Below are positions 1-53,303 of a stretch of DNA of 64,000 bases, in pieces. Within the stretch, counting starts at the first letter, position 1; the number at the start of each line of letters is the position of its first letter. The stretch spans positions 7,427-71,426 of the forward strand of contig CAZAFB010000005.1 in assembly GCA_964484505.1 (NCBI GenBank). The letters run 5' to 3'. The translations under genes and the position numbers were made by a program. The notes beneath the pieces are model-generated. The model saw only the letters and a program-made list of their open reading frames with translations, searched no databases and was not told the DNA's origin. The DNA is from an uncultured Bdellovibrionales bacterium. Its GTDB lineage: Bacteria > Patescibacteriota > Minisyncoccia > Moranbacterales > GWC2-37-73.

Positions 1-251
1 TCCGAAATCGCAGCTCAGCATCCGGAAACTTTCAAGAAATTCATGGAAACCGTAAAATAGTTTCCCCAGGCAACCAAAAACAAAGGTCCGACATCTTTTA
101 TGGAAGTCGGACCTCTTTGTATCTAAAAAAATTGGCTATTTGCTTCTACTCATAAACTCACGAAAAAGTTTTTTAAAGGCAAATATGGGAAGCCAGATCC
201 AAAGAGTCTTGCGAATCACCTTTTCCCCCATCTTATGAATATCCATATGCT

Positions 252-8783: not shown

Positions 8784-9851
8784 TCAGTCTGCCATTTTCT
8801 TGATGTACATATCCACATCGTTAATCCATTTGTTGGCAGCAGCTCTGCCTCCCGTCGCATTGCAATCGCGACCACATTTCCAAACCACCATTTCCGAAGG
8901 CGTATCAATATTTTCTTCTTTTATAAGAGTACTTAAGCGTTTAGCAACAGTATCGACAGCGTCTTTCTTACTATTGAAACAGGTATGTCCGCCTGTACCC
9001 ATCAAATTGCGCTGAGCGCGATATCCCCAAAGATTATTACAATCTTGTCCTTCTAAAGTTGGTACTCTTTTCCCCCAGTTGCTTTCTTTTTTGGCAATAG
9101 CGATCAGATAGGTAGCGACTTTGCGGTCTTTGGCAAAGATATAAGGAAGCATCTCCTCGATAGGATATCCCTTGACCATTTTGCGTACTTCCTGCTCAAA
9201 TTTGTCCTGATCGTTTATTTCATCAAATTGACTAAGCACTTTTTCCGCCTCCGTCATATTACTATAATCAGCGCTTGCCAAATCGGAATTATCCGTTTGT
9301 ATTTGCTGATGCGTTGCAGGTTCCGTTGCGATGTTTCCAGCAGCAGCACCCTGACCAAGATAACGATAAATCATAGTCATGGAAAACATTCCCAGCAATA
9401 TCGCGCCAACAATCGAAAGATTCCACAAGCGCACCAATGACAACTGTTGAACAAAACCTCTCATAGCGCCATCGACAGCTTCAGCGCTTTGTCTGGAGAT
9501 AGCATCAATTCTGCGCTCAAGAGAGCGAGCTAATATACCGACTGAAGATGGCTGGTATGATTTATATTCACGCACGATACGGCTGCTAAGACTATCCCAT
9601 TTTTTAATATCGCGATCCAGTTTAATGCCCTTGCTGATCCATTGGTATTCGCGTGGAGTAATATAGCGGCGAGAATCCTCTGTTATAAACTTTCCCGTAC
9701 GATACTTGTTTGATAAAAGTTGAGAAAAATTAATTTGTCTGTCTTTTTTTTCACGCAAATTCTCGTAAATTGCCAAGTCAAAATAAGGATCAACCCTTCG
9801 CGGCACCCTGCCGAAATCGATATTTATTTTTGTCTTTGTATTAAAATTCAT
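8784..9851 (-). CDS. Membrane-anchored GH73-like peptidoglycan hydrolase, paralog 2, with extra N-terminal cytoplasmic region
   Basis: IAKKESNWGK, DCNNLWGYR, GGHTCF, MVVWKCG, DVDMY motifs shared with 7825-8559 and 37620-38228; internal TM segment. Confidence 0.5.
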   Translation of the reverse strand: MNFNTKTKINIDFGRVPRRVDPYFDLAIYENLREKKDRQINFSQLLSNKYRTGKFITEDSRRYITPREYQWISKGIKLDRDIKKWDSLSSRIVREYKSYQPSSVGILARSLERRIDAISRQSAEAVDGAMRGFVQQLSLVRLWNLSIVGAILLGMFSMTMIYRYLGQGAAAGNIATEPATHQQIQTDNSDLASADYSNMTEAEKVLSQFDEINDQDKFEQEVRKMVKGYPIEEMLPYIFAKDRKVATYLIAIAKKESNWGKRVPTLEGQDCNNLWGYRAQRNLMGTGGHTCFNSKKDAVDTVAKRLSTLIKEENIDTPSEMVVWKCGRDCNATGGRAAANKWINDVDMYIKKMAD

Positions 9852-19406: not shown

Positions 19407-20129
19407 CTATTTATCGACAACTAGTCCATCCAGCATATGAATGACTTGATCAGCATATTGATACTGTTCAGGATTATGCGTAACCATCAAAATAGTAATA
19501 TTGAATTGCTTATTGAAATCTTTTAGCAATTCCATTAATTCCTGTCCGGCTTTCATATCCAGATTTCCAGTAGGCTCATCCGCAATCAAAAAACGCGGAT
19601 TAAGCAAGAGCGCCCTAGCCAAGGCAACGCGTTGCTGCTGGCCTCCGGAAAGGTCATATGGCCTATTGTGCATCCATTTGCCCATGCCCACCATCTCAAT
19701 CAATTGCGCTGCACGTTCCAGCGATTGCGCGAAGGTATCTCCTTTTATTAAGGATGGGATGGAAACATTTTCCAGAACAGAAAGTGATTTTATCCAGAAT
19801 GTCTGCTGGGGAATAAAGCCAACAAATTTGTTGCGAAAATCAGCTCGCCAATCCTTGGTTTTTTCCCAAATGCTGCATCCATCTATATATATCTTGCCCG
19901 TCGAAGGACCTTCCAGCCCATAAATAATATGAAGCAATGTTGATTTTCCACAACCGGAAGGTCCTGCCAAAATTGCAAAATCGCCCTCGTTTATGGAAGC
20001 GCTCACACCTTTGAGTACATTTACCGTGGTTGCACCCAAAATGAAATCTTTGGTTACATCTTCCACTCTGATGATTTCTTTTTTTGTTTTTTTTGTTTTT
20101 TCTATTTGCTCCATAATTTCGAGATCCAA
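19407..20129 (-). CDS. ABC transporter ATP-binding protein (MacB/LolD-like)
   Basis: Walker A GPSGCGKST; ABC signature LSGGQQQRVALARAL; Walker B LIADEPTGNLD. Confidence 0.9.
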   Translation of the reverse strand: MDLEIMEQIEKTKKTKKEIIRVEDVTKDFILGATTVNVLKGVSASINEGDFAILAGPSGCGKSTLLHIIYGLEGPSTGKIYIDGCSIWEKTKDWRADFRNKFVGFIPQQTFWIKSLSVLENVSIPSLIKGDTFAQSLERAAQLIEMVGMGKWMHNRPYDLSGGQQQRVALARALLLNPRFLIADEPTGNLDMKAGQELMELLKDFNKQFNITILMVTHNPEQYQYADQVIHMLDGLVVDK

Positions 20130-23100
20130 CCGAATCTGCTGGCGAATGTATCCACCACCACCTCCGTTGCGTTTTGTTTTTTGCCTTCCGTTACAATTGT
20201 CTGGGGTTGGGTCAAGGTTAAGTTTCCAGCATCATCATATGCTTCGACTTGATAACTGTATACTTGTCCAGCCTCTGCCGGAATCGTAACCATATGGTAG
20301 GTATTCAAATTGTCTTCCGGTGTGTTCTGTTCAAAATTAGATACAATAACTCCTTTGCCAAAGCGTACCTTGGTACGAGTCAATTCATTTGTTTCTATTT
20401 TTATATATATATTCGCTTGAGCATCCTTGCCACGCCCGTTTACTTTACCAACAGCTCGGTTGGTAACAATTTCCGGAGGCCTGCTGTCAGATTTGGTCGT
20501 AATTTTCTGCTCTACGGGAGTAGCCTCTACGCCAGCTTCACTAACACCACTTATGGAAAGCGTGTATTCCTTGGCAGGATCCATTCCGGCTATTTCAGCG
20601 ACATGTTCAGTTGTTGGCTGACTTTCCAAAAAATTATGGAAATTAGCCTCATCGGCAGTCTTGAATCTGACCAATGTGGTCGTATTTACATCTGTCTTAT
20701 ATCTTACCACAACAGTCGGCACATCCACATTCTCCTTATTTTCGACTTGAACTTCCGATACTACCGGCAATTTAAGTGTAGTGAAAGTATATTCATCTGA
20801 AGAGAATTGGTTATTGTCAGCATCCAATGCATCGACCATTACTTTGTATGTTGAGGCACTGTCCAGTCCTTCCAGCTTCATCACATGGGAAGTCGAACCG
20901 GACGTTTCCTCTGAAGATCCAGTAAAAGCTCCTTTGCCGAATTTCAAGGTACAAGTTGCACTGACATTAGTTTTCCAAGAAACCGTTGCTGTGTTAAGAC
21001 CGACGTCATTGATAACCATATCGGAAATAGTAGGAGGAGGAAGGGTTGTGAAAGTTAGAATCTCAGAGGTACCAATGTTACCGTCAGGATCAATATATTT
21101 AACACGATAGAAATATTTAGTATCAGCAGCAAGACCTTTCACTTGCACGGCGTGATCCGTGACCGAGTCAACTTGCCCGGTTGTTTCCCCGAGTTCCGTA
21201 GTTTTGCCATATTCAATGAAAGAACTAGCCGTACGATTTGTTGCCCACGTGAAATCAGCAGCAAATGATTGTGCTTCAACAGCTGGCTGTTTAACTATGG
21301 CCGGTGGCCTTGTGTATTTACCAGTCGGCGTAAGCTGCACTGTAGCGGAAGCCGGAGAATAGTTATTGGTCTTATCTTTGGCTTTAACGTAGTAATAATA
21401 TAATCTACTTTCCAATTCCGTATCCACATAAGCGCTACCAGTAGTTGAAGCTATCTCCGTGAAATCGACATTGTCATCCGAACGATAGATAGTATATCCG
21501 GCAAAATTACCCGAATCGTACGTTACAGGCGGTGACCATTTCACTGCCACGCTATATTCAGCATTTTCACGATCAGAGGTATCGAAGGCTTGTGCGTTGA
21601 GCGGCTGACTTGGCGCGCTGGTCTCGGCATAGAAATTTACCGCTGCCGGATTATTCCAATCGGCGTTGTTCAAAAGATCGGTTTCACCTCCTTCGTTCAA
21701 GGCAACAATATAAAAAGTATTCTTTCCATATTGCGTAGCAAATGGTCCTGGTCCTGCCGCAAGTGCCGTGGTTACAGTCGTGTTGTACGGGGTTGGCAAA
21801 ACATTTATTGAATAATAATATTTGAGCTTAGTAGGATCTCCTCCGTATACTGATGGAGTTTCCCAAGTGAAAGTGAATGAATTTGTCGTATTGTTTATAT
21901 CCGACGGAGTAACTTGCAGATTATTCGGTGGTGAAGCCGGACCTCCGGTATAGTAGTAATCCTGAGAAATTGGCGAGGAAGTGTTTCCTGCGGCATCTAC
22001 TGTGCGAAGATAGAAAGTATTTTTATTGTTCTGATAATGTGTTTCTGTTTGGGTAACTGTTGCAGGATCAGGAATATCATGCCAGACCCCAGGTGTATCA
22101 CCACCAGTTCGATATTGAAACATAGCCACGCCAGAATTAGCATCTGATGCATCCGGAGTCCAGGAGAAAGTATATGAAATAGCAGATGAATACCCTGTCG
22201 GATTCACGGAAATATCACTCGGATTGCTTGGTGCAGTTGCATCATAGCGATAAACAAATGCATCATAACTTGTTGAGCTTATAAAACCGGCATTATCAAT
22301 GGTCTTGATTTTTAGATAATAGTCAGAACCGGAACTTGATGGCGATCCAGCAAAACTGTTTCCGGCTTGAAAAGAGCCGTCTACAAAAGGATCAGCCGAA
22401 GCATTAGTGCCGAAATAGACATAATATCCTGCCACACCCGAACCTCCGGTGTTATCCTGAGCACCACCCCCTGCTCCCGCCAGAGGCCATTCAAAATATG
22501 GTGCTGCATGATTATACCAATTGTTAGTAGTTATACTACTTCCCGTAGAGCTGCTTTTGGCTGTAATTGAGGAGGGATTTGTCGGAGGATCAATATCTTG
22601 ATAATAATTGATCGTAAAATCATCAAGCCGCGGTGAAAAAATACGATCATTTGAAGTGAATCTGGCACGAACCTGAATGAATTCTGCGGGAGCAGAAACA
22701 ATACTCATCACATGTGTGTTACCAAATACATGATCATTTGCCGTCGGACTCCAAGATGACCAATCCGTACCGTTGCTAGAAGTTCGTGTTTCAAAAGTCA
22801 ATGTCGTATTATTGGGCTGCACATAATTTACGGTAAGATTTGCCCAGCGATAAACGGAAACAAGGTCCATTGCTTCAGATTCATATGTTCCAGTCTTTGC
22901 AAAACCGGTACCATTTGTTTCACTACCGATTACATAATTATACAAACCATCGCCAAAAGAATTTGTGCCAGCACCCGAAATCAACCAATTGCGATTAGCA
23001 AGATAAACAGAAAATCCTCCGGTAGTTACATTGGCTGGAATATTGGCGGAAGTTAAAGATTCCCACGTTCCAGGCGTCGCCTGCGCAGTATTGTAACGAT

Positions 23101-26100
23101 AATAGGTGTTGGTATTGATACCACGAGATACGTAGAGATAACCATCATGACCATCAATCATATTGGCGCCAGCTCCTGCAGTTGCGGGCAATGCTCCGAG
23201 CACAGTCCAAGTAGTGTTGGAAATTTGATAACGACAAGTAGTCGCATTTGTGGCACCTCGTAAAAGATAGATATAACCGTCTTTATATACAATCTTTCCG
23301 CCATCACCCGTAAGACATGAAGCATTGACGGGAAGTGCCGCAGACCAACGAGAACCTGCTGCCGCAGTCGTATCATAACGCCACCAGGTGTTAGCACCGT
23401 TTCCGGCGGTTAAATATATATATTGAGATCCGTCATAAGTCATTGAGGAGCCAACCAGTGTTTTAGCCGGCGGACGGTCCGTGATTATTTCTTCCCAAGT
23501 ATTGGTATTAGTGAGGTATCTGAAAAAATATGGGGCTTTGGAATCTCCGGTACGTGCGGTCCTAATATTTCCTGGTATATAATAAACGGCATTTTCATCT
23601 TCATTGAAAACCATACTACTTCCTTGATATAAACCTACCGGCAATTTCGAGAGTTCCGTAAATGTTCCCGAATCCGTATCATAACGCCCAAAAACATTAT
23701 CATATGAACCACGTGCCATATAAATCGAATCACTTTTGTCCGCAGCTATAACCGATCCATTACCATAGAGGAAATAACTGGTTCCGGCAGTTGTCGACGG
23801 TCCAAAAAATGCTCGCTGCGGCAATTCCCAAGTATTTTCAGCAATATTAAAGCGATAAAAATTCGTTGTCGTGCCACCGCGCGTTGCATAGATGTAACCA
23901 TTGTAAACAACCATGGATGCACCATAGGATATGGAAGCAGGAACATCAGGCATCACATACCAGGTAGCAGACTCAATATCGTAGCGATAAAATTTTTGCC
24001 TACCTTTTCCCGCAAACACATAGATGGAATTGGCAGTGTTGTCAAAAACGATAGTGCCACCATCATAGATTCCTTCGGGAGCCATAGGCAGCGAAGTCCA
24101 AGAGTTGGCATGCTCACCCCGAGATAAATCGTCCCCGATGGAATACTTGGCAAAATAGGGATACAAGTTTCCCTGAATCACATAAATATTATTGCGCTCA
24201 TCATAGATAGCATCACCACCAATATATGTCCTTTGTCCATCTGCCGTATTTGGGTTTCCAAACTCCGCATTCGGGAGCTGCGTCCAAGAGGGTGTACATG
24301 ATGTTTGATTATTGCACGTGTCATATTTGTAGAAAGCATCGTCATTTCCAGGCATCGCATAAATATAGCGCGAACCATCATAGGAAAGATTCGAGCCATA
24401 ATCGAAATTCTTCGGCGCGCTGTCTATTGTGCTCCAAACATTATTCTCTATGTCATACATCCAAAAAGTTGAAGTTGCTACACCTCGAGCAGCATATAGA
24501 TAACCGGCAGGACCTGCCACCAAAAATCCGCCATTATTGACTGCCAAAGGAGCGGCAGCAACGGTTGCGGGAGATGTGGTCCATGTATCAGTTTCTATTT
24601 CATACCTATGAAACGTGGTTCCGTTAGCGCCACCGAAAGTATAGAGACAATGATTACTATTGCCCCTACATGAACTTAATGCCAATTCTCCCCCAGCAGC
24701 AATATTTCCCAGAGCAAGTGAGAGCCGTGCTTGATTCCAAAAACCATTTGATGAATTCAGTCTTACGGAATCAGTTACACTAGTGGCATTAACATCAGTA
24801 AGCGTGCCTGCGGCAAAATCTGCAGTTGAAGTTTTTTGCTCATCAAGATAAGGGGAGACACCGCTATAGACATAAGTAAATGCATCCCAGGTAGAAGAAG
24901 AAACATTGCCGTTTACATCTTTGGTTTTAACGCGCAGATAGTATGTTCCTGTTTGCAGGGCCAAATTTACCACATAAGAACTGGCGGTTTGGTATGATCC
25001 TTGCGTTACTGGGTCTGCGCCATCGTCAGTACCAAAATACACATAATAACCATCAATACCACTGCCGGAGTCGGCAGCACCACTCCAAGAAAAATAAGGA
25101 TGTTCATGCGGATATGATTGCCCTGAGGTCAGCGCTTGTCCACCTACTTGCTGCGATCTTGCATCAACCGCGGTCGGATTTGTAGGCGCATCGTCCTCAC
25201 TGTTATAAGAAATTGTGTAATCAGATACTGTAGGCGTGTAAAGGCCATCAGACGTGTTAAGCGTAACCTTTACTTGCACATATCTGTTGACTGGCGAAGC
25301 GATTGTCGTTCCGGAAATAACTTGCCAAGAAGACCAGTTTTCGTTATCAGAACTAGTACGGGTTTCATAGGTAATGCTGGTATTGGTCGGCGTATTGTCC
25401 GCTTTATTGAAAGAAACCCAGCTTTGCACATTGGATAAGTCTAGTGATTGACTGACATAAGTACCACTAGCAACAAAATTGGTAGCGCCGGAAGTGTAAC
25501 TCCACACGTCAGCAAGACCTTGCCCTGTTGTGGCAAAAAATGAAGTGCCACCGGCATATTCTATAGATGCTCCATTATATGGTCCGCGGCCGAAGGTATA
25601 TTGTTGATTATTCGGCAGCTTGCGCCAAGTGTCCGTGGCAATGGTATATTCCCAAGTGTCATCTTTATAAAGTCCCGCCAGAGCATATACTTTGCCATTG
25701 GCATAAGTCATATCAGTACCATAATATTGTGCAAAAGGCGTTGAAGCAATCTTACTCCAAACACCTCCACTATATTTCAAGAAGGTTGTTTCTCCATCTC
25801 CCAACATCACATACACATCAGTTCCATCAGTAACAATACGTGCTCCAATACTAGCATAATAGGTAACACCACTCACCACCATGTTGGCAAGGGCGGTCCA
25901 ACCGCCAGCATCAGTGTAACGATAAAAATTGGCAGTACCATTACCGCGAATGGCATAAATTGAATTATCGGATGCGCAAGCAAGCCCTGCACCATTACTT
26001 GCCGTAGCCGGGAAAGGCTGTGTGGTCAATGTCGTCCAAGCGTTTTCAGCGTAACGATAGAATGTTGTCGTATTGCCGCCTAGAAGAGCATACACATAAC

Positions 26101-27703
26101 CGTTGCAATAAGTGGCCTTTACATCCGTTGTAATTGAAGCAGGCGTGGTAGCTTTATTGGTCCAGATATTTGTAGCGACATCGTAACGATAGAAAGCATT
26201 ACTGTTGCCTCTTATAGCATAGACGTAATTAGTTGCACCGGATTGCCCATTCCAAATCAAATCACCACCAGTATTTACGGTTCCGGTTCCATCCAGCATC
26301 TGTTTTGGTCCCTCCCACTCGCCATTTGCTCCCAAAGAAGGATCAAATTTCCAAATATCCGTCGTACCGTTACCACGAACGCCATACAATTTATTATCAT
26401 CGGTATTAAGAATCAGTGAACCATAATTCACTGTTGCAGGAGCGACTTCATTCGTTCCCGAAAGCACGGTCCAGGAGTTACCCGCAACATTAAAACGAAG
26501 AAAGCTAGTTGTCGAGCCACTACGAAAATAATAAATATTTCCATTGTAATATGCACCTCTTTGATCCGAAGTGAAAGTATAACCTGTAGTAGCATTTGCT
26601 CTGGCTTCCCAGGTATTTGCCCCCGTACCAGATATCTTGTAACGATAGAATGTTAGAGTGCTAGCACCCCGAGTAAGATAGAAATATCCGTCCTGACCAT
26701 TTACCAAATCACCTCCCGCACCGACAGTTGCAGGAACTGGAGCTAGATTACTCCAATCATTTGTCGCCACATTGTAACGCCAAAAATCAGTACTGCCATT
26801 ACCCCTGACCACGAAAATATTCGTACCATCAGTTTCCACTGCAGCGCCTTGCCAAGGGGTGTCCAAAAGATCTGCAAGCTGGGTCCAAACACCCGTGGCA
26901 ATCGTATATTTGTAAAATTTTTGCGAATATCCTCCAAAAATCGCATATATAGCTCCATTGCCATCATAGATCATGTCCGCACCATAATATGCAGGCACCG
27001 GCAGATCAGCCAATGTATCCCATTTGTTTTCTGCAACATCATAACGCCAGAAAGCTTTGTCTGAATACCCCCTAAAAACATACATATAGCCACCGGTTAT
27101 CACACCAGAATGTCCATATGCAATGGTATCTTGCGGTGGCGCCCAAACGCGCGCGCCCCAAGTTCCTGTGGGTTTCAATTGAATCGCATCTTGAGAACTT
27201 TCAGTACTGACGCTGGCAAGCGTACCTTTGTCCCAATCATTTTTGAAAGTAATTGTTGTTGATTGTGGGGCGCTGAGCGCAAAAGGATTTGCTGCATAAA
27301 CCATGGCAATTGCCACTGCGATCACCATGCTTCGATACGTTGTCTTAATACCGAAAATCGCTGTTTTTTTAGTAAATTTTTTGAAAAGTGCACTTAACTT
27401 CTCTACCAACTTGAGCCTAACATAAGCCTTTCCCAAAACATGTGCTTCATGCTTTTTTGCAACCAAAGCAACTTCCAAATCATCAATTTTACCCCAACGC
27501 AAAACACGCTTGCGAGAAATTTTCTCTCCGCGCTGACAGCTTTTCCAATTCCCGTTTTTATTATCCATACAACGGGTCTTATCTGTAGTATTCTTTTTTG
27601 TTTTTCCTTTTGTCTTTTCTGTCATTTTATATTGTAAAAACAAAGGCCCAGGCCGGCACAAACGCTTTTGGCGTTTTATGTCGACTCGGGCCGGTTTTGC
27701 CAT
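20102..27703 (-). CDS. Giant (about 2500 aa) secreted/surface protein with multiple Kelch-like beta-propeller repeat blocks and C-terminal fibronectin type III domains
   Basis: Recurrent ~50-aa units (…FYRYD..TN.W..L…); Fn3-like segments (APSNPSDISVNP…, TATVSWKTNVSATCTLKFGK); signal-anchor MVIAVAIAMVYAANPFALSA; alternative start at 27625 (MTEKTKGK) lies after a terminator-like hairpin; 28-nt overlap with ABC ATPase gene. Confidence 0.7.
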   Translation of the reverse strand: MAKPARVDIKRQKRLCRPGPLFLQYKMTEKTKGKTKKNTTDKTRCMDNKNGNWKSCQRGEKISRKRVLRWGKIDDLEVALVAKKHEAHVLGKAYVRLKLVEKLSALFKKFTKKTAIFGIKTTYRSMVIAVAIAMVYAANPFALSAPQSTTITFKNDWDKGTLASVSTESSQDAIQLKPTGTWGARVWAPPQDTIAYGHSGVITGGYMYVFRGYSDKAFWRYDVAENKWDTLADLPVPAYYGADMIYDGNGAIYAIFGGYSQKFYKYTIATGVWTQLADLLDTPWQGAAVETDGTNIFVVRGNGSTDFWRYNVATNDWSNLAPVPATVGAGGDLVNGQDGYFYLTRGASTLTFYRYKISGTGANTWEARANATTGYTFTSDQRGAYYNGNIYYFRSGSTTSFLRFNVAGNSWTVLSGTNEVAPATVNYGSLILNTDDNKLYGVRGNGTTDIWKFDPSLGANGEWEGPKQMLDGTGTVNTGGDLIWNGQSGATNYVYAIRGNSNAFYRYDVATNIWTNKATTPASITTDVKATYCNGYVYALLGGNTTTFYRYAENAWTTLTTQPFPATASNGAGLACASDNSIYAIRGNGTANFYRYTDAGGWTALANMVVSGVTYYASIGARIVTDGTDVYVMLGDGETTFLKYSGGVWSKIASTPFAQYYGTDMTYANGKVYALAGLYKDDTWEYTIATDTWRKLPNNQQYTFGRGPYNGASIEYAGGTSFFATTGQGLADVWSYTSGATNFVASGTYVSQSLDLSNVQSWVSFNKADNTPTNTSITYETRTSSDNENWSSWQVISGTTIASPVNRYVQVKVTLNTSDGLYTPTVSDYTISYNSEDDAPTNPTAVDARSQQVGGQALTSGQSYPHEHPYFSWSGAADSGSGIDGYYVYFGTDDGADPVTQGSYQTASSYVVNLALQTGTYYLRVKTKDVNGNVSSSTWDAFTYVYSGVSPYLDEQKTSTADFAAGTLTDVNATSVTDSVRLNSSNGFWNQARLSLALGNIAAGGELALSSCRGNSNHCLYTFGGANGTTFHRYEIETDTWTTSPATVAAAPLAVNNGGFLVAGPAGYLYAARGVATSTFWMYDIENNVWSTIDSAPKNFDYGSNLSYDGSRYIYAMPGNDDAFYKYDTCNNQTSCTPSWTQLPNAEFGNPNTADGQRTYIGGDAIYDERNNIYVIQGNLYPYFAKYSIGDDLSRGEHANSWTSLPMAPEGIYDGGTIVFDNTANSIYVFAGKGRQKFYRYDIESATWYVMPDVPASISYGASMVVYNGYIYATRGGTTTNFYRFNIAENTWELPQRAFFGPSTTAGTSYFLYGNGSVIAADKSDSIYMARGSYDNVFGRYDTDSGTFTELSKLPVGLYQGSSMVFNEDENAVYYIPGNIRTARTGDSKAPYFFRYLTNTNTWEEIITDRPPAKTLVGSSMTYDGSQYIYLTAGNGANTWWRYDTTAAAGSRWSAALPVNASCLTGDGGKIVYKDGYIYLLRGATNATTCRYQISNTTWTVLGALPATAGAGANMIDGHDGYLYVSRGINTNTYYRYNTAQATPGTWESLTSANIPANVTTGGFSVYLANRNWLISGAGTNSFGDGLYNYVIGSETNGTGFAKTGTYESEAMDLVSVYRWANLTVNYVQPNNTTLTFETRTSSNGTDWSSWSPTANDHVFGNTHVMSIVSAPAEFIQVRARFTSNDRIFSPRLDDFTINYYQDIDPPTNPSSITAKSSSTGSSITTNNWYNHAAPYFEWPLAGAGGGAQDNTGGSGVAGYYVYFGTNASADPFVDGSFQAGNSFAGSPSSSGSDYYLKIKTIDNAGFISSTSYDAFVYRYDATAPSNPSDISVNPTGYSSAISYTFSWTPDASDANSGVAMFQYRTGGDTPGVWHDIPDPATVTQTETHYQNNKNTFYLRTVDAAGNTSSPISQDYYYTGGPASPPNNLQVTPSDINNTTNSFTFTWETPSVYGGDPTKLKYYYSINVLPTPYNTTVTTALAAGPGPFATQYGKNTFYIVALNEGGETDLLNNADWNNPAAVNFYAETSAPSQPLNAQAFDTSDRENAEYSVAVKWSPPVTYDSGNFAGYTIYRSDDNVDFTEIASTTGSAYVDTELESRLYYYYVKAKDKTNNYSPASATVQLTPTGKYTRPPAIVKQPAVEAQSFAADFTWATNRTASSFIEYGKTTELGETTGQVDSVTDHAVQVKGLAADTKYFYRVKYIDPDGNIGTSEILTFTTLPPPTISDMVINDVGLNTATVSWKTNVSATCTLKFGKGAFTGSSEETSGSTSHVMKLEGLDSASTYKVMVDALDADNNQFSSDEYTFTTLKLPVVSEVQVENKENVDVPTVVVRYKTDVNTTTLVRFKTADEANFHNFLESQPTTEHVAEIAGMDPAKEYTLSISGVSEAGVEATPVEQKITTKSDSRPPEIVTNRAVGKVNGRGKDAQANIYIKIETNELTRTKVRFGKGVIVSNFEQNTPEDNLNTYHMVTIPAEAGQVYSYQVEAYDDAGNLTLTQPQTIVTEGKKQNATEVVVDTFASRFGWISKLWSK

Positions 27704-32083: not shown

Positions 32084-32377
32084 TTAGTAGCGTGAGCCAC
32101 CGTCGAAGTCGCGGCGAGGAGGACGAGCCTCCATTGGGCGAGCTTCGTTCACGGTAAGCGTACGACCATCGAATTCCTTCTTGTCAAACATTTCGATAGC
32201 TTTTTGAGCTTCTTCGTCTGAAGACATTTCTACGAATCCGAATCCTTTCGAACGACCAGTCATTTTGTCAGTAATAATTGCTACGGAAGCAACGGTTCCT
32301 GCTTGAGAAAAATATTCCTTCACAGAATCTTCGGTGCTTGAGTATGGCAATCCACCAACGTACAATTTTGTAGCCAT
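32084..32377 (-). CDS. RRM-type RNA-binding protein
   Basis: RNP-2 LYVGGL and RNP-1 KGFGFVEM; start taken at MATKLY (six-frame track extends to 32440). Confidence 0.8.
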   Translation of the reverse strand: MATKLYVGGLPYSSTEDSVKEYFSQAGTVASVAIITDKMTGRSKGFGFVEMSSDEEAQKAIEMFDKKEFDGRTLTVNEARPMEARPPRRDFDGGSRY

Positions 32378-46789: not shown

Positions 46790-46826
46790 CTATTCGTACT
46801 TTCGTATTTATTCGTAATTTGTAGAG
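46790..46826. promoter_or_regulatory. ATTCGT hexamer array copy (ctattcgtactttcgtatttattcgtaatttgtagag) upstream of the oxidoreductase gene
   Basis: Matches 29888-29923; overlaps the last codons (TNYE*) of the 46808-48694 gene. Confidence 0.4.
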
Positions 46827-48694
46827 ATTTTCTCGAACACAAAATACCGCACATCGCGTTCTTTGTCTTCTTTGTCTTCGCGGAAATAACGCGTGATTAT
46901 ATATTTAGAAGTAGTATTATCACCCTCTGTATTTTCCATATCATCATTTTTAGCGACCAGAAGCTCTTGCATAACTTTTTTCATGCGTTCGAAATCGTTT
47001 TGCATGTCGAATTTGAGCACGAAAGATTCTTGTCCGAGCAAGGGCGCAATATCCTCATGCGTCCAACATTGATTCTTCAAATGTTCTTCGTCAATCGGCT
47101 CATCTTTGCCTTCATTGCGATAAGCATATTTTGGATTTTTCTCATTATCCAGACGAATCGTGAAAAGCGGCTCGCCTGATTCATGATAATCACTGATAAA
47201 ACCATCGATTACATGTCCATAATCCTCAACATAGGAACAACCGACTGGTATTCTTACCGAAACCGCCGCAATCAATACATGCTCGCGCGCTTCTTCCAAA
47301 ATCGCCCTTTTCATCAGTTCATTTCCAACGCCAATGCTGCGAGCATCCGCATCAACATTGAATGATCCCCAATAGTATGTGCTTTGATCAAGCTTTTTCA
47401 AACGTAGTTCTGCAACAATTCTTTTCTTATACCGTATAGAATAAAACTTGTGTTGTTTCGGATTTTTCAGACCATCGTCAAGTCCGGCCATCGCCGCATC
47501 TTTCAATGGGTCGCCGGCATAATTTCTTTCAGGGATATCGCGGTGCTCTTTCATGTCTTCCTCATCCGGAAAATTCTCCCCGAAGTCCTTGATTGCAAAA
47601 TCAACGTCTTTGATGTATTCCAAGTCTATTTTTACATCACTTTCTTTAGCAGCTTTCAACGCCGCCGCGAGCAGAATAATATCGGTTTTGGATTTTTCAA
47701 GGTCGGAAAGTAGCGCTTCAACCAATTGCTGCTTCTCTTTTTTATTATATTTCCCGATTACGCTCATCTTAAACGCTTTGGAAAAATTAACAATAATTGC
47801 ACGTACTTTTTCCAATAACTGCCCACGTAAATTCAATTGCTCTCCCTCAATTCCTAGTGCTTTATTAAGTGTTTCATTTTCCTGATCAGCCAAACCAACG
47901 ATTTCGGCAATTTTTTGAAAAACCAACTCGCCCTTTTCTTTTTGTAAATCTTCCTGAAAGCGCTCACCTATTTTTAAAATATTTTCACCAATTATTGCAT
48001 CTATTTCCAAGACTAAAAAGGATTTAAGACCATTACCGCCAAATTGATGTGTAAATTTTTTGAGTTTTGTTATATTTTCCACGCTACGCGAGTTGAGAAA
48101 ATCGAAGAAATTTTTACGGATATTTGGCGAGTAACCCTGAATATCAACACCAAAATCTTTTTTTAGCAAGTGTTGCATATAGGCATTATCAGCATCAAAA
48201 AACCAGTTCTCATTTTTCGGCACCAAAATCTCTTCCGCGTCTTCCTCATATTGGTCCGCAATGCCCTGCTGATATGGCGCATCCAATATTTCTTTGATGT
48301 GAAGTTGCACTAAATAATTCCCGAATCTGTTTTTTTCTTTTCTCAATGCATTGAATATTTCAACGCTTACATCATCGTCAAATTCATATTGATCATACTC
48401 GTCGGTTTCCGCATCTTCATATTCATGATGATAATTTTTCAATGGCACAAAAATATCTTTCCTGCCCTCCGCATCTTCATCGAGTTCAACAGTAAGATGG
48501 ATGGGATTTTCCAACATATATCCGGATAATTTGTCCAAAATGACATGAATCTCCTCTTTTGATGGTGTGTAATATAAAACCTGTTCCAACAGATCTTCAG
48601 CATCCTCACTCGTGAGACTTTCTTTTTTGAGCAACTCGTAATATTCAGGATTTTGAGAATTTTCTATTGAATTGTTTGAGATTTCCTTTTTCAT
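46808..48694 (-). CDS. Large acidic hypothetical protein with possible C-terminal GNAT-like acetyltransferase fold
   Basis: Start trimmed to MKKEISNN (ATG 48692-48694) to avoid overlap with upstream ATPase; C-terminal RIVAELRL…SIGVGNELMKRAILEEA resembles GNAT motif A. Confidence 0.45.
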   Translation of the reverse strand: MKKEISNNSIENSQNPEYYELLKKESLTSEDAEDLLEQVLYYTPSKEEIHVILDKLSGYMLENPIHLTVELDEDAEGRKDIFVPLKNYHHEYEDAETDEYDQYEFDDDVSVEIFNALRKEKNRFGNYLVQLHIKEILDAPYQQGIADQYEEDAEEILVPKNENWFFDADNAYMQHLLKKDFGVDIQGYSPNIRKNFFDFLNSRSVENITKLKKFTHQFGGNGLKSFLVLEIDAIIGENILKIGERFQEDLQKEKGELVFQKIAEIVGLADQENETLNKALGIEGEQLNLRGQLLEKVRAIIVNFSKAFKMSVIGKYNKKEKQQLVEALLSDLEKSKTDIILLAAALKAAKESDVKIDLEYIKDVDFAIKDFGENFPDEEDMKEHRDIPERNYAGDPLKDAAMAGLDDGLKNPKQHKFYSIRYKKRIVAELRLKKLDQSTYYWGSFNVDADARSIGVGNELMKRAILEEAREHVLIAAVSVRIPVGCSYVEDYGHVIDGFISDYHESGEPLFTIRLDNEKNPKYAYRNEGKDEPIDEEHLKNQCWTHEDIAPLLGQESFVLKFDMQNDFERMKKVMQELLVAKNDDMENTEGDNTTSKYIITRYFREDKEDKERDVRYFVFEKISTNYE

Positions 48695-48704
48695 ATATTT
48701 TGAT

Positions 48705-49856
48705 TTACAGCCCCACAAATTCTTCAAAGTTTTCCTTGTTGACCAAGGTGACATCACTGCCAGGATAGGCTTCCAGAAATGCTTTGGGTTTTTTGAATTT
48801 GTCTTTTTTCCATTTAAACTCAAATCCCTCCATTTTTCCACCCTCTTCTTCAATATAATCAATTTCTTGTTTTTGCATCGTGCGCCAAAAATACGTCAAT
48901 TTGTCATGCTCATTGTTGCCATTGAATTTCATGCGCTCACTAAGCATGAAGTTTTCCCAAAGCGCACCCGCATCGGTTCGCAGGTCAAGCGGATTAAAAT
49001 TATTAATCAAGGCGTTGCGCACACCTGTGTCATAGAAATAAATCTTGCGCATTTTCTTGAGCTCGTTGCGCAAGTTTCGCGAAAGCGGCCGCAGGCGAAA
49101 AATAATAAAAGCCTGCTCCAAAATTCTAATGTAATTTTCAACTGTGTTTTTGCTGATTTTCAAAAGATTCGACAATTCATTGTATGAAACTTCATTGCCG
49201 ACTTGCAAAGCCAAAGCTTGCAACAAATTGTCCAGCAAATCAGAATGCTTTATGCCTTGATATTCCAAAACATCCTTATATAGATAACTGTGAGTTATTT
49301 CTTTCAATCTGTTTTTGGCATCCTCCCCGGCATCAATAACTTCGGGATATGCTCCAAATATCATTTGTCTCTCCAAAATTCTGCGCATTTCAAGACGGTC
49401 ATATTTTTGTGACAACTCTTCAAGAGAAAAAGGATGCAAAAAAAATTCATATTTTCTTCCCGTGAGCGGTTCTATAATTTTATTTGACAAATCAAATGAT
49501 GATGATCCCGTCGCAATGATTTGTATTTCAGGATAATTATCAACCAAAAGCTTTAGCGTGAGTCCAATGTTTTCAATTCTTTGCGCTTCATCAATAACTA
49601 CAAAATCTTTTTGACCAAGATATTCTTTGAGTGCCGTCGAAGTTTTGTTTGTGAGTGCCTGACGCACATCCAAATCATCACTACTCAGATACTTTGTGTC
49701 ACGCTCTTTGGCATATTTTTCCAAAATTGTCTTTGCCAAAGTGGTTTTGCCAACCTGGCGTGGGCCATAGATTATGATTATTTTCCCTTTAAAAAGGCGT
49801 TTTTCAATGTTTTTTTGGATTGTTCTTTCAAAAATCATATGATTTTGGTCAATCAA
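48705..49856 (-). CDS. AAA+ ATPase, AAA_14 + DUF4143 architecture
   Basis: Walker A GPRQVGKTT; Walker B VVIDEAQ; C-terminal DUF4143-like region; 10-nt gap to downstream gene. Confidence 0.8.
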   Translation of the reverse strand: MIDQNHMIFERTIQKNIEKRLFKGKIIIIYGPRQVGKTTLAKTILEKYAKERDTKYLSSDDLDVRQALTNKTSTALKEYLGQKDFVVIDEAQRIENIGLTLKLLVDNYPEIQIIATGSSSFDLSNKIIEPLTGRKYEFFLHPFSLEELSQKYDRLEMRRILERQMIFGAYPEVIDAGEDAKNRLKEITHSYLYKDVLEYQGIKHSDLLDNLLQALALQVGNEVSYNELSNLLKISKNTVENYIRILEQAFIIFRLRPLSRNLRNELKKMRKIYFYDTGVRNALINNFNPLDLRTDAGALWENFMLSERMKFNGNNEHDKLTYFWRTMQKQEIDYIEEEGGKMEGFEFKWKKDKFKKPKAFLEAYPGSDVTLVNKENFEEFVGL

Positions 49857-49975
49857 CTGACCTAATTTATATATATTTAGGTGACTTAACTGACCTAAAT
49901 ATATATCATTTTGGTGATTTTGTCAAGATTTTGGGCAAGAAAAAAGCGCCCGTCAACCACGACAGGCGCAAAACA

Positions 49976-50242
49976 TTACTTCTCGAGGCGGATGTCAAGC
50001 CCACCGCCTCTGGACACCTTTACGGTGTCCCCCTTGTGGGCTCTTCGGCCCGAAAAATTTAGAGGGTAGTTACCCCACGGTGTTTCCACCGTGGCCAGTA
50101 ACTTGTCCCCCATCTTTCCCCCGGGGGCAGGTTCCGTGAGTAACCTGCCCACCCCCTCTTCTACGGGGGAAAGGAACGGCCACAACAGCAGCGACAGTAT
50201 CACTGCTGCTACCACCGCTACTGCCAAATCCCCTTTTTTCAT
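49976..50242 (-). CDS. Small GC-rich ORF (88 aa, one hydrophobic segment), cassette ORF-A
   Basis: Preceded by GAGGAGG RBS within a repeated promoter cassette; followed by minus-strand terminator gcgcctgtcgtggttgacgggcgc + T6 (about 49935-49972); GC content well above the flanking genome. Confidence 0.35.
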   Translation of the reverse strand: MKKGDLAVAVVAAVILSLLLWPFLSPVEEGVGRLLTEPAPGGKMGDKLLATVETPWGNYPLNFSGRRAHKGDTVKVSRGGGLDIRLEK

Positions 50243-50350
50243 ACTTCCTCCTCGCCCCGCTTCTGCGGAGCTTTTTTGATTTTGACTACCCAATAATATT
50301 TTCAAATAAAAACATAAAGGGTAGTCAAAAATGGAAAAATTTATCAAAGA
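50238..50350. promoter_or_regulatory. Promoter/operator-RBS cassette, copy 1: perfect 10-bp inverted repeat TTGACTACCC…GGGTAGTCAA
   Basis: The inverted repeat supplies a TTGACT -35 hexamer on both strands; followed by GC hairpin and GAGGAGG RBS on minus strand; homologous to 50888-51010. Confidence 0.5.
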
Positions 50351-50437
50351 ACAAAAACTTTCTGTCTGAATTTACATCTTGTGATATAAACTCGGAAAAA
50401 AGTGGGAGCGAGCGACCAAGCAACGCTCCCGAAACCA

Positions 50438-50890
50438 TCATGCCTCTGCAGGCACCTCTCTCTGAATGTTCTTTGAGAAAGAGGGGGTGCATGTCGCCCC
50501 TACGTGCTGGGCGGCGACATACACCAACCCACCACTCTCGGGGAAATTCTCCCCGAGAAGGCGGTAAAGCTCCCTTGTCCGTTCGCCGATCAGGCGAGCG
50601 GGGAAAAGGCCTTTGTGTGGGCATGCCGAGAACGCCTCGGCGTAACCCTGCTCCTGCCATTCTTCCGGGGCAGGAGCAAGAAACACATTGTACTTCGCGT
50701 TGCCGATCAGCAACGCGCTGTGCAAAGTGTTCCAGGAGGTGAAGCCGAACTCCACCTCCTCTCTATGGTCAGTGTTCCGACCATAGAGATTCACCGCCAC
50801 TCGGGTTTCCCCAAAAGTGGCGAAAATGTCAGTTGAGTCCTCGATGCTTCTCAGCATCGAGGAAAGAATTTCAAAATTTTTCCTTCTCAT
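50438..50890 (-). CDS. GC-rich ORF (150 aa), cassette ORF-B, hypothetical
   Basis: ATG 6 nt downstream of GGAGGA in cassette copy 2; own terminator gggagcgttgcttggtcgctcgctccc + T-run (about 50395-50430). Confidence 0.4.
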   Translation of the reverse strand: MRRKNFEILSSMLRSIEDSTDIFATFGETRVAVNLYGRNTDHREEVEFGFTSWNTLHSALLIGNAKYNVFLAPAPEEWQEQGYAEAFSACPHKGLFPARLIGERTRELYRLLGENFPESGGLVYVAAQHVGATCTPSFSKNIQREVPAEA

Positions 50891-51010
50891 ACTTCCTCCT
50901 CGCCCCGCTTCTGCGGAGCTTTTTTAATTTTGACTACCCAGCGATATTTTCAATATAAAAAATACTCAGGGTAGTCAAACTGGAAAATGAAATTTTTATC
51001 AAAGAACAAA
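50888..51010. promoter_or_regulatory. Promoter/operator-RBS cassette, copy 2
   Basis: ttgactacccagcgatattttcaatataaaaaatactcagggtagtcaa; reads as TTGACT-N18-TATAAA on plus strand and TTGACT…TATATT on minus. Confidence 0.5.
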
Positions 51011-51276
51011 TTCTCTCAGAAACTTTCATCAAATAACTTCATGAAAATTTCAATTGAGAGGAGAAGAATAACCACATTCTTCTCCAAAAAACTTCAATCT
51101 GAGTTGACCTTTAGCCCGTCGAATGACTGGGCTCCGCTCTGATTAGTAAGGAGTGTTCTTTTTTAAGTCGAACACACAAACGACTTGAGAACTTCTATTT
51201 AACCTCCCTAATCTCGATAACTGTCCCACCAAAATAATTTTGGTAGGAATCTATAGAGCAGATTTCTTTGGGAGTA

Positions 51277-51320
51277 CAGACGTACTGTCTGTACTCCCCC
51301 GTTAATCTTTTTTTCACAAC
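51277..51320 (+). terminator. Strong intrinsic terminator (gggagtacagac gtact gtctgtactccc + T-run)
   Basis: 12-bp perfect stem followed by cgttaatcttttttt on plus strand. Confidence 0.55.
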
Positions 51321-51339
51321 TACTATAATTTTTTTTGCC

Positions 51340-51500
51340 ACATTTCCTCCTCGCCCCATCTTGCGACGGGGCTGACGTCGGTCGTCACCCATTTTTTGCA
51401 CCGCTCACAAAAACATCTTTGTTGCTTGAAAATATTTTTGCGAGCAGTACAGTTTGAGGAAAACGAAATTTGGAATTTTTAAATCAAAGAACTTCTGTGG
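51340..51500. repeat. Degenerate third copy of the cassette (RBS-like catttcctcctcgcccc, GC hairpin, ttgaaaatat, ggaaaacgaaattt…atcaaagaac) without the inverted-repeat halves
   Basis: Aligns with 50238-50350 and 50888-51010 downstream regions. Confidence 0.4.
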
Positions 51501-52403
51501 ACTTGTCGAGCACTTTTGAAAATAGTGCTTAATTCCCTCCACAATTCTGTATGTGACAGGTATCTGGCTTTTTGGGTTCCGATTACTCGGAAAGAGAGAG
51601 ATAACCCAAGATGCAAGACAGATGCCAACGTATCACATACAGGATTGCGGAGACAATTTTGTTTTTCGGTAAAGGTTACGATGCCTGTTTGGTTTAGCGG
51701 TTATGTTTTTCGGCATGCGAACCTAACCTTAACCTTTTGACGATACGGGCTTCATTACCTTTACCGTTTTACAATACTGGGCGCGACACTCTCTCTTCAT
51801 CGCGCCTGTTTTATATAAATTGCTTTAATTTGCTATCCTTGTGTTCGACTCCGTACTTTGTACTTAATGAGTTCACAAGGAGTGTAGTGGATACATGCTA
51901 TCTTTTGATTCATGTGTCCACCTTCACTCATTGCGAAGATGTGGAAGTATTAGCGAACCTCACCGTAGGAATGTCTCCCTCTTTAGGTTATTCCTACAAC
52001 TTGGTTACGACTTGCTCAGGTCATGGTTAGCGACCTGCCTTAATTCCAAATGAGTAATGGAATCAGATGCACATCTTTTGTAAATCGTTGCCTTGTCCAG
52101 CTTTGTGGAAAGGGGGATATGCAAGAAAGCCGCCTTCTTTTTTTGAGGAGGCGGCTTTGCTTTATTCAATGTCTGCGCCTCTCTCTTTGCGCATCCCTCT
52201 TTTCACAGAGGATATTTGATTGTTAATGGGGTGTTACGCTTTTTCGGATGTGCGCTTTCGGATACTTCATCGTAACACCGCATTATACACCCAGAAACAC
52301 TTTTTGTCAATGGTTTTGGTGCAATATTTTGGCTAACTGTCGCTTTTTTCTTTACTATGGTGTTATTTTTGGCGTGTTTTTGAAAATATTTTGTCATTTT
52401 CGA

Positions 52404-52432
52404 ATTGACATTTTTGAAATTGTTTGCTATAA
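52404..52432 (+). promoter_or_regulatory. Consensus sigma70-type promoter TTGACA-N17-TATAAT upstream of TrmB-family regulator gene
   Basis: ttgacatttttgaaattgtttgctataat; followed by two 8-bp hairpins arranged as a larger palindrome (about 52463-52548). Confidence 0.55.
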
Positions 52433-52553
52433 TGGGAGTAGAAATAACCAATAAATTTGTCATCCTGAACTTGTTTCAGGATCTACGTAATAGAAAGCGC
52501 AGCGAAATAAAGCTCGGGATTCCGGATCAAGTCCGGAATGACAAAGTAAAAAA

Positions 52554-53303
52554 ATGTATACCCAACTACTAATAAACGCCGGGCTCAGCGAAATCCAAGC
52601 CAAAACATTGGACTTTTTGATCCGGTCCGGCGAATCCAAAGCGGCCGATATCGCCAAAAACACCGCTCTCGCCCGGGGAGTGGCATATAAAGCGCTGGAT
52701 GAATTGATTTTGTTAGGCTTAATAGAAAAACAAGAAAAAGGCTCCAAAGTCGCCCGTTTTCGCGCCGAGCATCCAAGTAAAATCGAAGAATTTTTTGAGG
52801 AAAAAGAAAGGCAAAGCCACAAACAAAAACGGGAATTTATTCAATCCCTGCCTGATATCATTTCTTCCTACAATCTGGCTAGCAACAAACCCGGCGTGAA
52901 ATTTCTCGAAGGCGAAGACGGCATCCGCATTGCCCTTTTCGACACTCTCAAATCAACCACGGAAATATATACGTTTGCCGACATCAAAGCTACCAACGAA
53001 AATCTCAAAGAAATCAACGACGAATACGCCCGAAAACGTGAAAGACTTGGCATTAAGAAAAAAATCATCGTTTCTGACAGTGAAGAAAACAGAAAATTCT
53101 TTGAAGGATTCGACAATGAAATCACGCAAGTAAAATTCATCAAGAAAGAATATTATCCTTTCAAAACAGGCATGCAAATATATAACAATAAAGTTTCCTA
53201 TCAGACCTTGGAAAAGGAAAACAATATCGCGGTCATCATCGAAGACCGCAATATCTACCAAATGCACAAACTGTTTTTCGAGTATATGTGGGAGACATTA
53301 TAA
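52554..53303 (+). CDS. TrmB-family transcriptional regulator (wHTH + sugar-binding-like C-domain)
   Basis: N-terminal GLSEIQAKTLDFLIRSGESKAADIAKNTALARGVAYKALDELILLGLIEK typical TrmB wHTH. Confidence 0.7.
   Translation: MYTQLLINAGLSEIQAKTLDFLIRSGESKAADIAKNTALARGVAYKALDELILLGLIEKQEKGSKVARFRAEHPSKIEEFFEEKERQSHKQKREFIQSLPDIISSYNLASNKPGVKFLEGEDGIRIALFDTLKSTTEIYTFADIKATNENLKEINDEYARKRERLGIKKKIIVSDSEENRKFFEGFDNEITQVKFIKKEYYPFKTGMQIYNNKVSYQTLEKENNIAVIIEDRNIYQMHKLFFEYMWETL

Follow-up and report, generated by a model that had tools for sequence, protein, structure and literature searches.

A putative lineage-specific variable-gene slot with RNA 5′ UTR modules in Candidatus Moranbacteria

In the upstream homology box (UHB) loci of Borrelia (erp / ospE-F), near-identical upstream regions have been recombined onto unrelated coding sequences; these loci are carried on multiple prophage plasmids, one per replicon, and covarying RNA hairpins or a structured leader are not known from them. 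JUMPStart/ops together with RfaH, and the EAR RNA of Bacillus eps, are leaders that license transcriptional read-through of variable gene clusters. In the Bacteroidales, rAID-1 (recombinase-associated acquired interbacterial defence) clusters are recognised by a XerD-like recombinase at the 5′ end (>44% identity to BF9343_RS08045) together with the immunity genes that they contain (bioRxiv 10.1101/471110). In Neisseria, the Correia repeat enclosed elements (CREEs) place inverted repeats in the 5′ untranslated regions (UTRs) of genes, where they form an RNA hairpin and can change expression, including via RNase III (PMC2649163). Here, a locus is described from a 64,000-nucleotide stretch of contig CAZAFB010000005.1 (positions 7,427 to 71,426), hereafter the window, in which three unrelated small open reading frames (ORF-C, ORF-B and ORF-A) each follow one copy of a repeated module of about 115 nt on the minus strand. 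On balance, the window is probably one case of a variable-gene slot with RNA 5′ UTR modules that is specific to its lineage, Candidatus Moranbacteria. Neither this locus nor its leader RNA turned up in searches of the literature.

The comparison with these systems showed partial likeness in every case. As in the Borrelia UHB loci, one upstream region, which in Borrelia comprises promoter, ribosome-binding site and gene start, is joined to unrelated ORFs. With JUMPStart and EAR the locus shares a conserved 5′ leader ahead of compositionally atypical, variable clusters that contain internal terminators; unlike them, it shows no similarity in sequence or structure (no Rfam match) and no NusG paralogue was seen nearby, and antitermination is here a hypothesis only. 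Co-directional genes, skewed GC content and repetitive intergenic sequences are common to this locus and rAID-1, which has been read as actively acquiring genes (10.1101/471110), but here no recombinase lies near any locus, GC content is skewed upward instead of downward, the arrays hold one to five genes and the cargo has no similarity to immunity genes. The Correia elements also provide an inverted-repeat RNA hairpin in the 5′ UTR of the downstream gene; however, they are scattered, with hundreds of copies lying in either orientation, whereas here the hairpin is found at one locus, in a fixed orientation and as part of a larger UTR unit. Phage morons and accessory or defence hotspots resemble the locus in consisting of self-contained units with their own terminators and atypical GC content between conserved genes, and the cargo of sister loci includes defence-signalling proteins (SAVED, radical SAM, NrN); unlike morons, there are no phage genes nearby and the units have a standardised leader in common in place of promoters of their own. 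Finally, integrons share with the locus the co-oriented, unrelated small genes, a palindrome whose structure is kept over its sequence, the variable content and the atypical composition. They differ in that here there is no integrase near the array and there are no attC cores, the hairpin lies in a 5′ UTR, each cassette has a terminator, and the place where intI and attI would be is taken by a large structured leader RNA and a TrmB-like regulator. The finding is therefore best described as a variation on the cassette-array or hotspot theme, with possibly a new RNA class attached.

Between positions 51500 and 49940, the minus strand of the window holds three consecutive units, each with a box, a long hairpin, a short GC hairpin, the Shine-Dalgarno (SD) sequence GAGGAGG, a start codon and an ORF (Table 1). 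A direct repeat of 81 nt (50236–50316 versus 50884–50964) is 89% identical, with similarity reaching as far as about 50352 and 51007. Of the block GGGGCGAGGAGGAA there are exactly three copies, at 50245, 50893 and 51344 of the minus strand, all within the array, 0.39 chance matches being expected with up to two mismatches allowed. An earlier note on this DNA, made from the sequence alone, had claimed three copies of a cassette; the repeats were confirmed with slightly corrected coordinates, but copy C, which has the GTTCTTTGAT box and the SD block in common with A and B, carries a different hairpin of about 23 pairs. The perfect inverted repeat that it reported is present in both full copies, with spacers of 27 and 29 nt and not of 28–29 bp; the arms, TTGACTACCC/GGGTAGTCAA, can be extended to 12 and 11 bp and, within the window, are restricted to 50282/50319 (unit A) and 50930/50969 (unit B). 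The continuation of these two modules on the minus strand into a GC hairpin, GAGGAGG and a start codon was seen as described. A further near-match to the SD block, at 32111, was rejected as coincidental because it lies inside a gene for an RRM-type RNA-binding protein; this small gene (32084–32377, minus strand) encodes the motifs LYVGGL and KGFGFVEM. When the SD-proximal module (GGGGCGAGGRGGAAGTATG, also in a looser form) was sought in IMG/VR, in JGI metagenome contigs and in 185,579 species genomes, only chance matches and unrelated REP (repetitive extragenic palindromic)-like repeats were returned; the contigs of the window are absent from these collections, so this absence means little.

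The nature of the palindrome became apparent from related loci, for which DNA was retrieved around eight homologues of the adjacent TrmB-like regulator and around the homologue of ORF-B. Gene tables were compiled for the loci labelled L001, L002 and L092–L101, to which L104 was added, and spanned up to ~10 kb on each side of a locus, less at contig ends. In ten modules from six related Moranbacteria genomes, the outer arm TTTGAYT/ARTCAAA is kept and the inner four or five pairs exist in at least six variants, all of them complementary (ACCC/GGGT, GCTCA/TGAGC, GCCTC/GAGGC, GCTCC/GGAGC, TCCC/GGGA and GCTT/GAGC). In the alignment of the arms of these ten hairpins, 94% of the cells are paired and 6 of the 12 pairs have undergone compensatory changes; the covariation score was 0.409 versus 0.186 in shuffles, none of 500 reaching the observed value, and slid registers scored at most 0.137. 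Wherever an arm pair departs from Watson-Crick, the ORF strand has G-U there, never A-C. Across a folding set of 11 hairpins, G-U pairs numbered 30 on the sense strand versus 8 on the antisense strand, and the RNA of the ORF strand was the more stable one every time, by a mean of 5.6 kcal/mol. Compensatory changes in the arms together with G-U pairs confined to the ORF strand argue for an RNA hairpin and not for a protein-binding DNA palindrome. Further, the conserved promoter of L099 and L095 is followed within a few bases by the GTTCTTTGAAAA box, which implies that the box is transcribed. The palindrome is best read as an RNA hairpin inside the 5′ UTR, which corrects a tempting misreading: a perfect palindrome that holds TTGACT is, at this locus, most likely neither promoter nor operator.

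The hairpin (P2) has a perfect lower stem of 11–13 bp, which a small internal loop separates from an AU stem of ~8 bp, and stands after a terminator and spacer, 45–100 nt ahead of the next start codon. Folding of whole modules gave z-scores of −2 to −7.5 and placed the hairpin in a three-way junction, which a UUUUCC/GGAGGAA stem is predicted to close in WIN-A, WIN-B, WIN-C, L001-2 and L092. Pairing of an upstream UUUCC tract with GGAGG would form this anti-SD helix (P1), which folding predicts for about half of the modules. Every copy has the short GC hairpin P3, which abuts the SD and shows compensatory variants (GCUCCGC/GCGGGGC, GUUCCAC/GUGGGGC and GCCC/GGGC). In three genomes, miniature inverted-repeat transposable elements (MITEs) have inserted into apical loops of the hairpins (L001 9890–9940, L101 and L104) and left the arms undisturbed. 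MITE-like repeats of the form ...GTCATTCCGGACTTGATCCGGAATC.../...TCAGGATGACA are also strewn through the locus, at 52458–52543 in the window and at 9570–9627 and 11091–11117 in L001.

The frame of the locus recurs in eight related genomes, and regulator homologues of 70–85% identity, named as Candidatus Moranbacteria or Patescibacteria, stand beside it in all related loci. It consists, in this order, of the regulator gene, a divergent sigma-70 promoter, a long ORF-free leader, one to five co-oriented genes, a terminator (GCGCCTGTCGTGGTTGAYGGGCGC followed by a U-run in the relatives) and a large gene with a GNAT domain; the long leader is absent from L095 and L099, and several of the related contigs stop before the right-hand border. 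The cargo differs in every genome and all of it occupies the same slot. In the window, L001, L092, L095 and L097, it lies 10–20 GC points above the host genes. The earlier note had supposed a cassette array and proposed a comparison with related genomes for variability; this comparison partly supported it, revealing one chromosomal slot with a conserved frame and with different, mostly GC-rich genes from genome to genome. Patescibacteria have tiny genomes, and the acquisition and regulation of accessory genes in them are little known; the locus provides a fixed chromosomal slot in which cargo of foreign composition turns over among close relatives. As for its function, the 245-aa cargo protein of L095 (6597–7334, minus strand) is a homologue of NrN (PADLOC C3a116, E = 1.6e-70; DHH_CorA, E = 2e-53; PDB 9lq9, E = 2.6e-32), a DHH phosphodiesterase that degrades SAM (S-adenosylmethionine)-AMP in type III CRISPR-CorA systems (PMC10600005). 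In L097 (1976–3269, minus strand), the cargo includes a match to SAVED-TM (E = 5e-16) and a weak one to viperin-type radical SAM proteins. No CRISPR, cas10, CorA or cyclase genes were visible near the NrN or radical-SAM/SAVED-TM cargo within the locus. Stand-alone NrN homologues were seen in two lineages, in L095 and in L104 (~1–85, minus strand).

The composition of the segment is atypical, as the earlier note had observed: the GC content is 57% in ORF-A and 55% in ORF-B versus 37–45% in the surrounding genes, and reaches 65% at third codon positions in both ORFs. The modules do serve unrelated ORFs, of which at least ORF-B is a real gene. A search of 5.8e9 proteins with ORF-B returned itself and one homologue of 80% identity, which has the same length and no indel; the 93 nucleotide differences between them fall 21/19/53 by codon position, and the ratio of non-synonymous to synonymous substitution rates (dN/dS) is 0.17, that of the adjacent regulator gene being 0.05. 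This ratio and the excess at third positions demonstrate a real gene under purifying selection, which is restricted to this lineage, and the possibility that the GC-rich stretch is a non-coding RNA was ruled out for ORF-B on the same grounds. A profile search of 1.84e9 cluster representatives added two weak partial matches to ORF-B and nothing credible, and the protein search with ORF-A found one 99% copy and nothing else. No family match was obtained for ORF-A, ORF-B or ORF-C in Pfam, PHROGs, NCBIfam or PADLOC, nor for ORF-A or ORF-B in a PDB sequence search, nor for ORF-B in a phage tblastn search; ORF-A also showed no similarity to the 91-aa membrane ORF of L001. The structure model of ORF-A has a predicted local distance difference test (pLDDT) score of 70, and its nearest structures are small beta-barrels at non-significant values (E ≥ 0.09), while the AlphaFold model of ORF-B is too poor for use (pLDDT 44).

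About 750 nt without credible ORFs separate the promoter from module C and constitute a leader that is a candidate for a new structured RNA. Its core is 84–95% identical among genomes whose regulator genes are 71–85% identical, and the 22-mer CATCTTCGCAATGAGTGAAGGT is found once, without variation, in every leader-bearing locus fetched. Covariation was analysed by applying RNAalifold to seven leader sequences, with a 205-nt core (52076–51872 in the window) being tested; 64 pairs were predicted, 19 of them with compensatory changes, and several invariant G-U pairs fix the strand as sense. Part 2 of the leader folds into a three-tier hairpin that keeps its loop GUCUCUCUC and its tail UGUGGAGG and has wholly different stems in different lineages (CTGTATGTGA/TCACATACAG in the window, CTGCGTAAATGA/TCATTTACGCAG in L092). 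For modules and leader, Rfam 15 gave no gathering-level matches in the window and only noise in the permissive E-value mode (at most 25.6 bits versus thresholds of at least 37), and no true matches to leader motifs were found in IMG/VR. The part 2 loop GUCUCUCUC is complementary to GAGAGAGA loops in other leader hairpins and upstream of several modules, and a kissing-loop interaction between them is possible. Loops containing GAGAGA lie in the leader and just upstream of modules, for example at 51015–51030 in the window. The 5′ part of the leader contains a 14-bp hairpin (52126–52158) that looks like a terminator on both strands; the segment with this hairpin occurs only in the window and L001, and the other leaders are without it.

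Downstream of the leader, transcription would meet terminators inside the array. The earlier note had assigned an intrinsic terminator to each ORF, and both were found: a strong one behind ORF-A, with a 10-bp stem and U6 at 49969–49940 (z-score −4.2), and a weaker one behind ORF-B, with a 7-bp GC stem and U6 at 50430–50396 (folding z-score −1). Because the cassettes have terminators and no internal promoters were found, a role of the leader in read-through is one possibility. Compared with the window (49946–49969), the array-end terminator of L101 (2990–3025, minus strand) has kept the loop GTGGTTGA while its stem covaries (AGAGCGTTTT.../...AAACGCTCT), so the loop may matter beyond termination.

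The locus is mosaic. Part 2 of the L001 leader is nearest to that of L097 (86%; 78% to the window), and the TrmB gene and leader core of L001 are nearest to those of the window. Between L092 and L094, part 2 is 91% identical and the regulator gene only 74%. The hairpin variant ahead of ORF-B in the window is not the one that precedes it in L001, and one hairpin variant stands ahead of three different ORFs. In L101 (4690–4700) and L104 (~85–95), leader, hairpin and UTR are common on the sense strand up to the ATG; exactly there the sequences diverge, and L101 encodes a 62-aa membrane peptide and L104 an unrelated NrN-like protein. These mosaic patterns are consistent with frequent recombination and gene conversion via conserved non-coding units.

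In the explanation that is favoured here, a standard module in the 5′ UTR, made up of a GUUCUUUGAWAA box, a long AU-rich hairpin and a short GC hairpin abutting the SD, is fused to each cargo gene and reaches right to the start codon; in several copies an upstream UUUCC tract is also predicted to pair with the SD and close a three-way junction. The palindrome would act as RNA of the ORF strand in the control of translation or in mRNA processing or stability; by one conceivable route, a double-stranded RNase would cut the long stem and so free the SD. The cargo, including ORF-A and ORF-B, would be foreign in composition and swapped between lineages by recombination, for which the conserved leader, UTR and terminator sequences might supply the homology. 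A more ambitious extension, which we regard as doubtful, is that leader and UTR modules form a recombinase-free platform for acquiring and expressing foreign genes in Moranbacteria. The leader would then be a new class of large functional RNA, acting as a processive antiterminator that takes the polymerase past the terminators of the cassettes, or as a sensor by which the whole array is turned on, and the modules would give each newly captured gene equal translational control. In that reading, the cargo of the sister genomes (NrN, SAVED, radical SAM) would point to a slot for phage defence, or for counter-defence in dealings between symbiont and host. If leader and modules are functional, the locus would represent a new way of domesticating imported genes and the leader would add to the short list of large structured bacterial RNAs.

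Several points weigh against the slot with RNA modules as just set out. For cassettes that stand behind a terminator, as A does behind that of B, no convincing promoter was seen, so that read-through or unrecognised promoters have to be assumed; the spacers behind the terminators contain weak candidates recognisable by eye, such as TTCCGA-17-TAAATT before module A, none of which was called by the scan. Only about half of the modules are predicted to have the pairing with the SD, which is short and AU-rich, so that it could have arisen by chance. The TGACA motifs of the regulator's own promoter region are similar to the outer arm TTTGAYT, and this conserved part of the hairpin may therefore have a role in DNA binding. 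The covariation set comprises ten interrelated hairpins, some of which are copies inside one array. The junctions at start codons are not accounted for by simple homologous recombination and, lastly, the absence of homologues of ORF-A and ORF-B beyond the lineage is odd for a recent import from a GC-rich donor.

Two other explanations give the palindrome a role as DNA. According to the earlier note, it was a divergent promoter with a symmetric operator, that is, a DNA site with a TTGACT −35 hexamer on both strands that would be bound by a dimeric regulator, for example the TrmB-like protein. TTGACT is a good −35 hexamer, and the plus strand of copy B can be read as TTGACT-18-TATAAA; however, a consensus scan called no sigma-70-like promoter on the ORF strand in 50230–50360, 50880–51010 or 51340–51500, no −10 element was found at 16–18 nt or at any fixed distance from TTGACT across copies, and the putative −35 itself differs among copies (TTGATT, TTGCTT, TTGGCT and TTTTACT). 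A winged-helix regulator is always encoded beside the locus, with a promoter region rich in TGTCAAT/ATTGACA motifs that resemble the outer arm, but at least six inner-arm variants stay complementary beside that same regulator, a distance of 27–61 bp separates the half-sites, MITE insertions are tolerated in the loop, and the strand asymmetry of G-U pairs would be meaningless for double-stranded DNA. The arms covary as RNA, and we consider this operator quite unlikely. A slightly better case, still an unlikely one, can be made for an integron-like system in which the hairpins would be attC-like single-stranded DNA sites cut by a recombinase encoded elsewhere in the genome as cassettes are inserted and excised. 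The folding strand bias would also suit such a substrate and the structure of the arms is kept while their sequence varies, but the arms read TTTGAYT/ARTCAAA, not RYYYAAC/GTTRRRY, and form perfect stems without extrahelical bases. In the window and L001, the homology of the B cassette runs from just 3′ of hairpin 1 to just 5′ of hairpin 2, which puts the hairpins at the breakpoints; other junctions, as between L101 and L104, lie at the ATG and not at the hairpin, which belongs to a 5′ UTR unit with similarity continuing to the start codon and does not directly follow the preceding stop codon. The cassettes are co-oriented and their content varies among genomes, but neither the gene tables around eight loci nor a Pfam scan of 29 window ORFs revealed an integrase, a transposase or any other recombinase of the tyrosine or serine type or otherwise. 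With no integrase at the surveyed loci and no attC core sites in the hairpins, the array does not qualify as an integron, and the integron-like reading suggested in the earlier note was not supported.

The remaining alternatives deny the modules a function of their own. They could be selfish repeats of the MITE or Correia type that have piled up in a region rich in intergenic sequence, with an incidental effect on their neighbours. Terminal inverted repeats around an AT-rich centre would fit this, other MITEs are clearly active in these genomes, some of them inside the hairpin loops, and Correia elements can supply promoters and RNase III sites (PMC2649163). Nevertheless, a scan of 196 kb from Moranbacteria showed this hairpin type at the one locus alone, and it occurs nowhere else in the window; its orientation is always the same and its position relative to box, SD and start codon is fixed, no target-site duplications were seen, and the arm variants covary and do not decay, all of which makes selfish repeats a very unlikely explanation. 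Least probable of all, and already disfavoured by the comparative sequence data, is a recent local duplication of a promoter and UTR without special function, the ORFs being ordinary strain-specific accessory genes. The 89% identity of modules A and B is consistent with recent duplication or gene conversion in the array, but the architecture recurs where flanking genes are only 70–78% identical, with several UTR subtypes and different cargo, and the structures of leader and hairpin are upheld by compensatory change.

Table 1. Positions of the features of the locus in the window, and cargo of the window and related loci
Feature	Positions	Strand	Description
TrmB-like winged-helix regulator gene	52554–53303	plus	Pfam TrmB, E 5e-8; divergent from array
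Divergent promoter region	52282–52433	both	minus promoter TTGACA-17-TATAAT 52310–52282 into leader; plus promoter 52405–52433 for regulator gene
Structured leader RNA (candidate)	51520–52281	minus	core 52076–51872; invariant 22-mer 51941–51920; part 2 51648–51533
Module C	51342–51500	minus	box GTTCTTTGAT 51492–51478; ~23-pair hairpin 51451–51397; two GC hairpins 51387–51353; SD GAGGAGG 51352–51346
ORF-C	51195–51341	minus	48 aa; GTG start; GC 0.37; no known homologue; putative coding
Second-type intergenic unit	51011–51194	minus	hairpin GGAGAAGAA/TTCTTCTCC 51085–51060, then CTCAATTGAAATTT, UUUCUGAGAGA; also in L094, L101
Module B	50891–51010	minus	box 51007–50995; candidate anti-SD UUUUCC; hairpin P2 50979–50929; GC hairpin P3 50919–50902; SD 50901–50895
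ORF-B	50438–50890	minus	150 aa; GC 0.55; lineage-restricted orphan under purifying selection
ORF-B terminator and spacer	50353–50437	minus	stem 50430–50404; U-run 50401–50396; 98.8% identical to two L001 copies
Module A	50243–50352	minus	box 50352–50340; anti-SD UUUUUCC; hairpin P2 50330–50280; GC hairpin P3 50271–50254; SD 50253–50247
ORF-A	49976–50242	minus	88 aa; GC 0.57; predicted N-terminal membrane helix and small four-strand beta domain
Array-end terminator	49940–49969	minus	GCGCCTGTCGTGGTTGACGGGCGC then U6; in L001, L092, L094; covarying stem, kept loop in L101
DUF4143/AAA_14 ATPase gene	48705–49926	minus	own promoter 49926–49898; between array terminator and GNAT gene
Large GNAT-domain protein gene	46808–48694	minus	conserved right-hand border in related genomes
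Cargo, window			ORF-C, ORF-B, ORF-A
Cargo, L001			ORF-B homologue, 91-aa membrane ORF, 160-aa ORF, 51-aa ORF
Cargo, L092			270-aa ORF, 61% GC
Cargo, L094			50-aa membrane peptide, 144-aa ORF
Cargo, L095			245-aa ORF; one more short uncalled ORF by eye
Cargo, L097			radical-SAM protein, SAVED-TM protein, three other ORFs
Cargo, L099			pentapeptide-repeat protein, at least one other ORF
Cargo, L101			62-aa membrane peptide, 401-aa ORF
Cargo, L104			NrN-like ORF

Both promoters of the divergent region match the consensus at 12 of 12 positions, and the minus-strand one is kept in eight loci as TTGACA-17-TATAMT. Several motifs of the TGTCAAT/ATTGACA type are found in this region (52310–52440 in the window and 4230–4340 in L097, where they include the palindrome TGTCAAT-N5-ATTGACA), and these are likely candidate binding sites of the TrmB-like regulator. 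At the other end of the array, the DUF4143 ATPase gene, to which the earlier note had pointed as a neighbour of the cassettes, is an unrelated insertion outside the system, peculiar to this genome and with its own promoter, and the syntenic site elsewhere is without it. Within 49842–49926, that promoter (TTGACA-17-TATATT) is followed by a 33-nt palindrome and the direct repeats ATTTTGGTCAATCAACTGACCTAA and ATTTAGGTGACTTAACTGACCTAA, which together are probably an operator for this gene. Elsewhere in the window, a very large ORF of 2533 aa occupies positions 20102–27703 of the minus strand.

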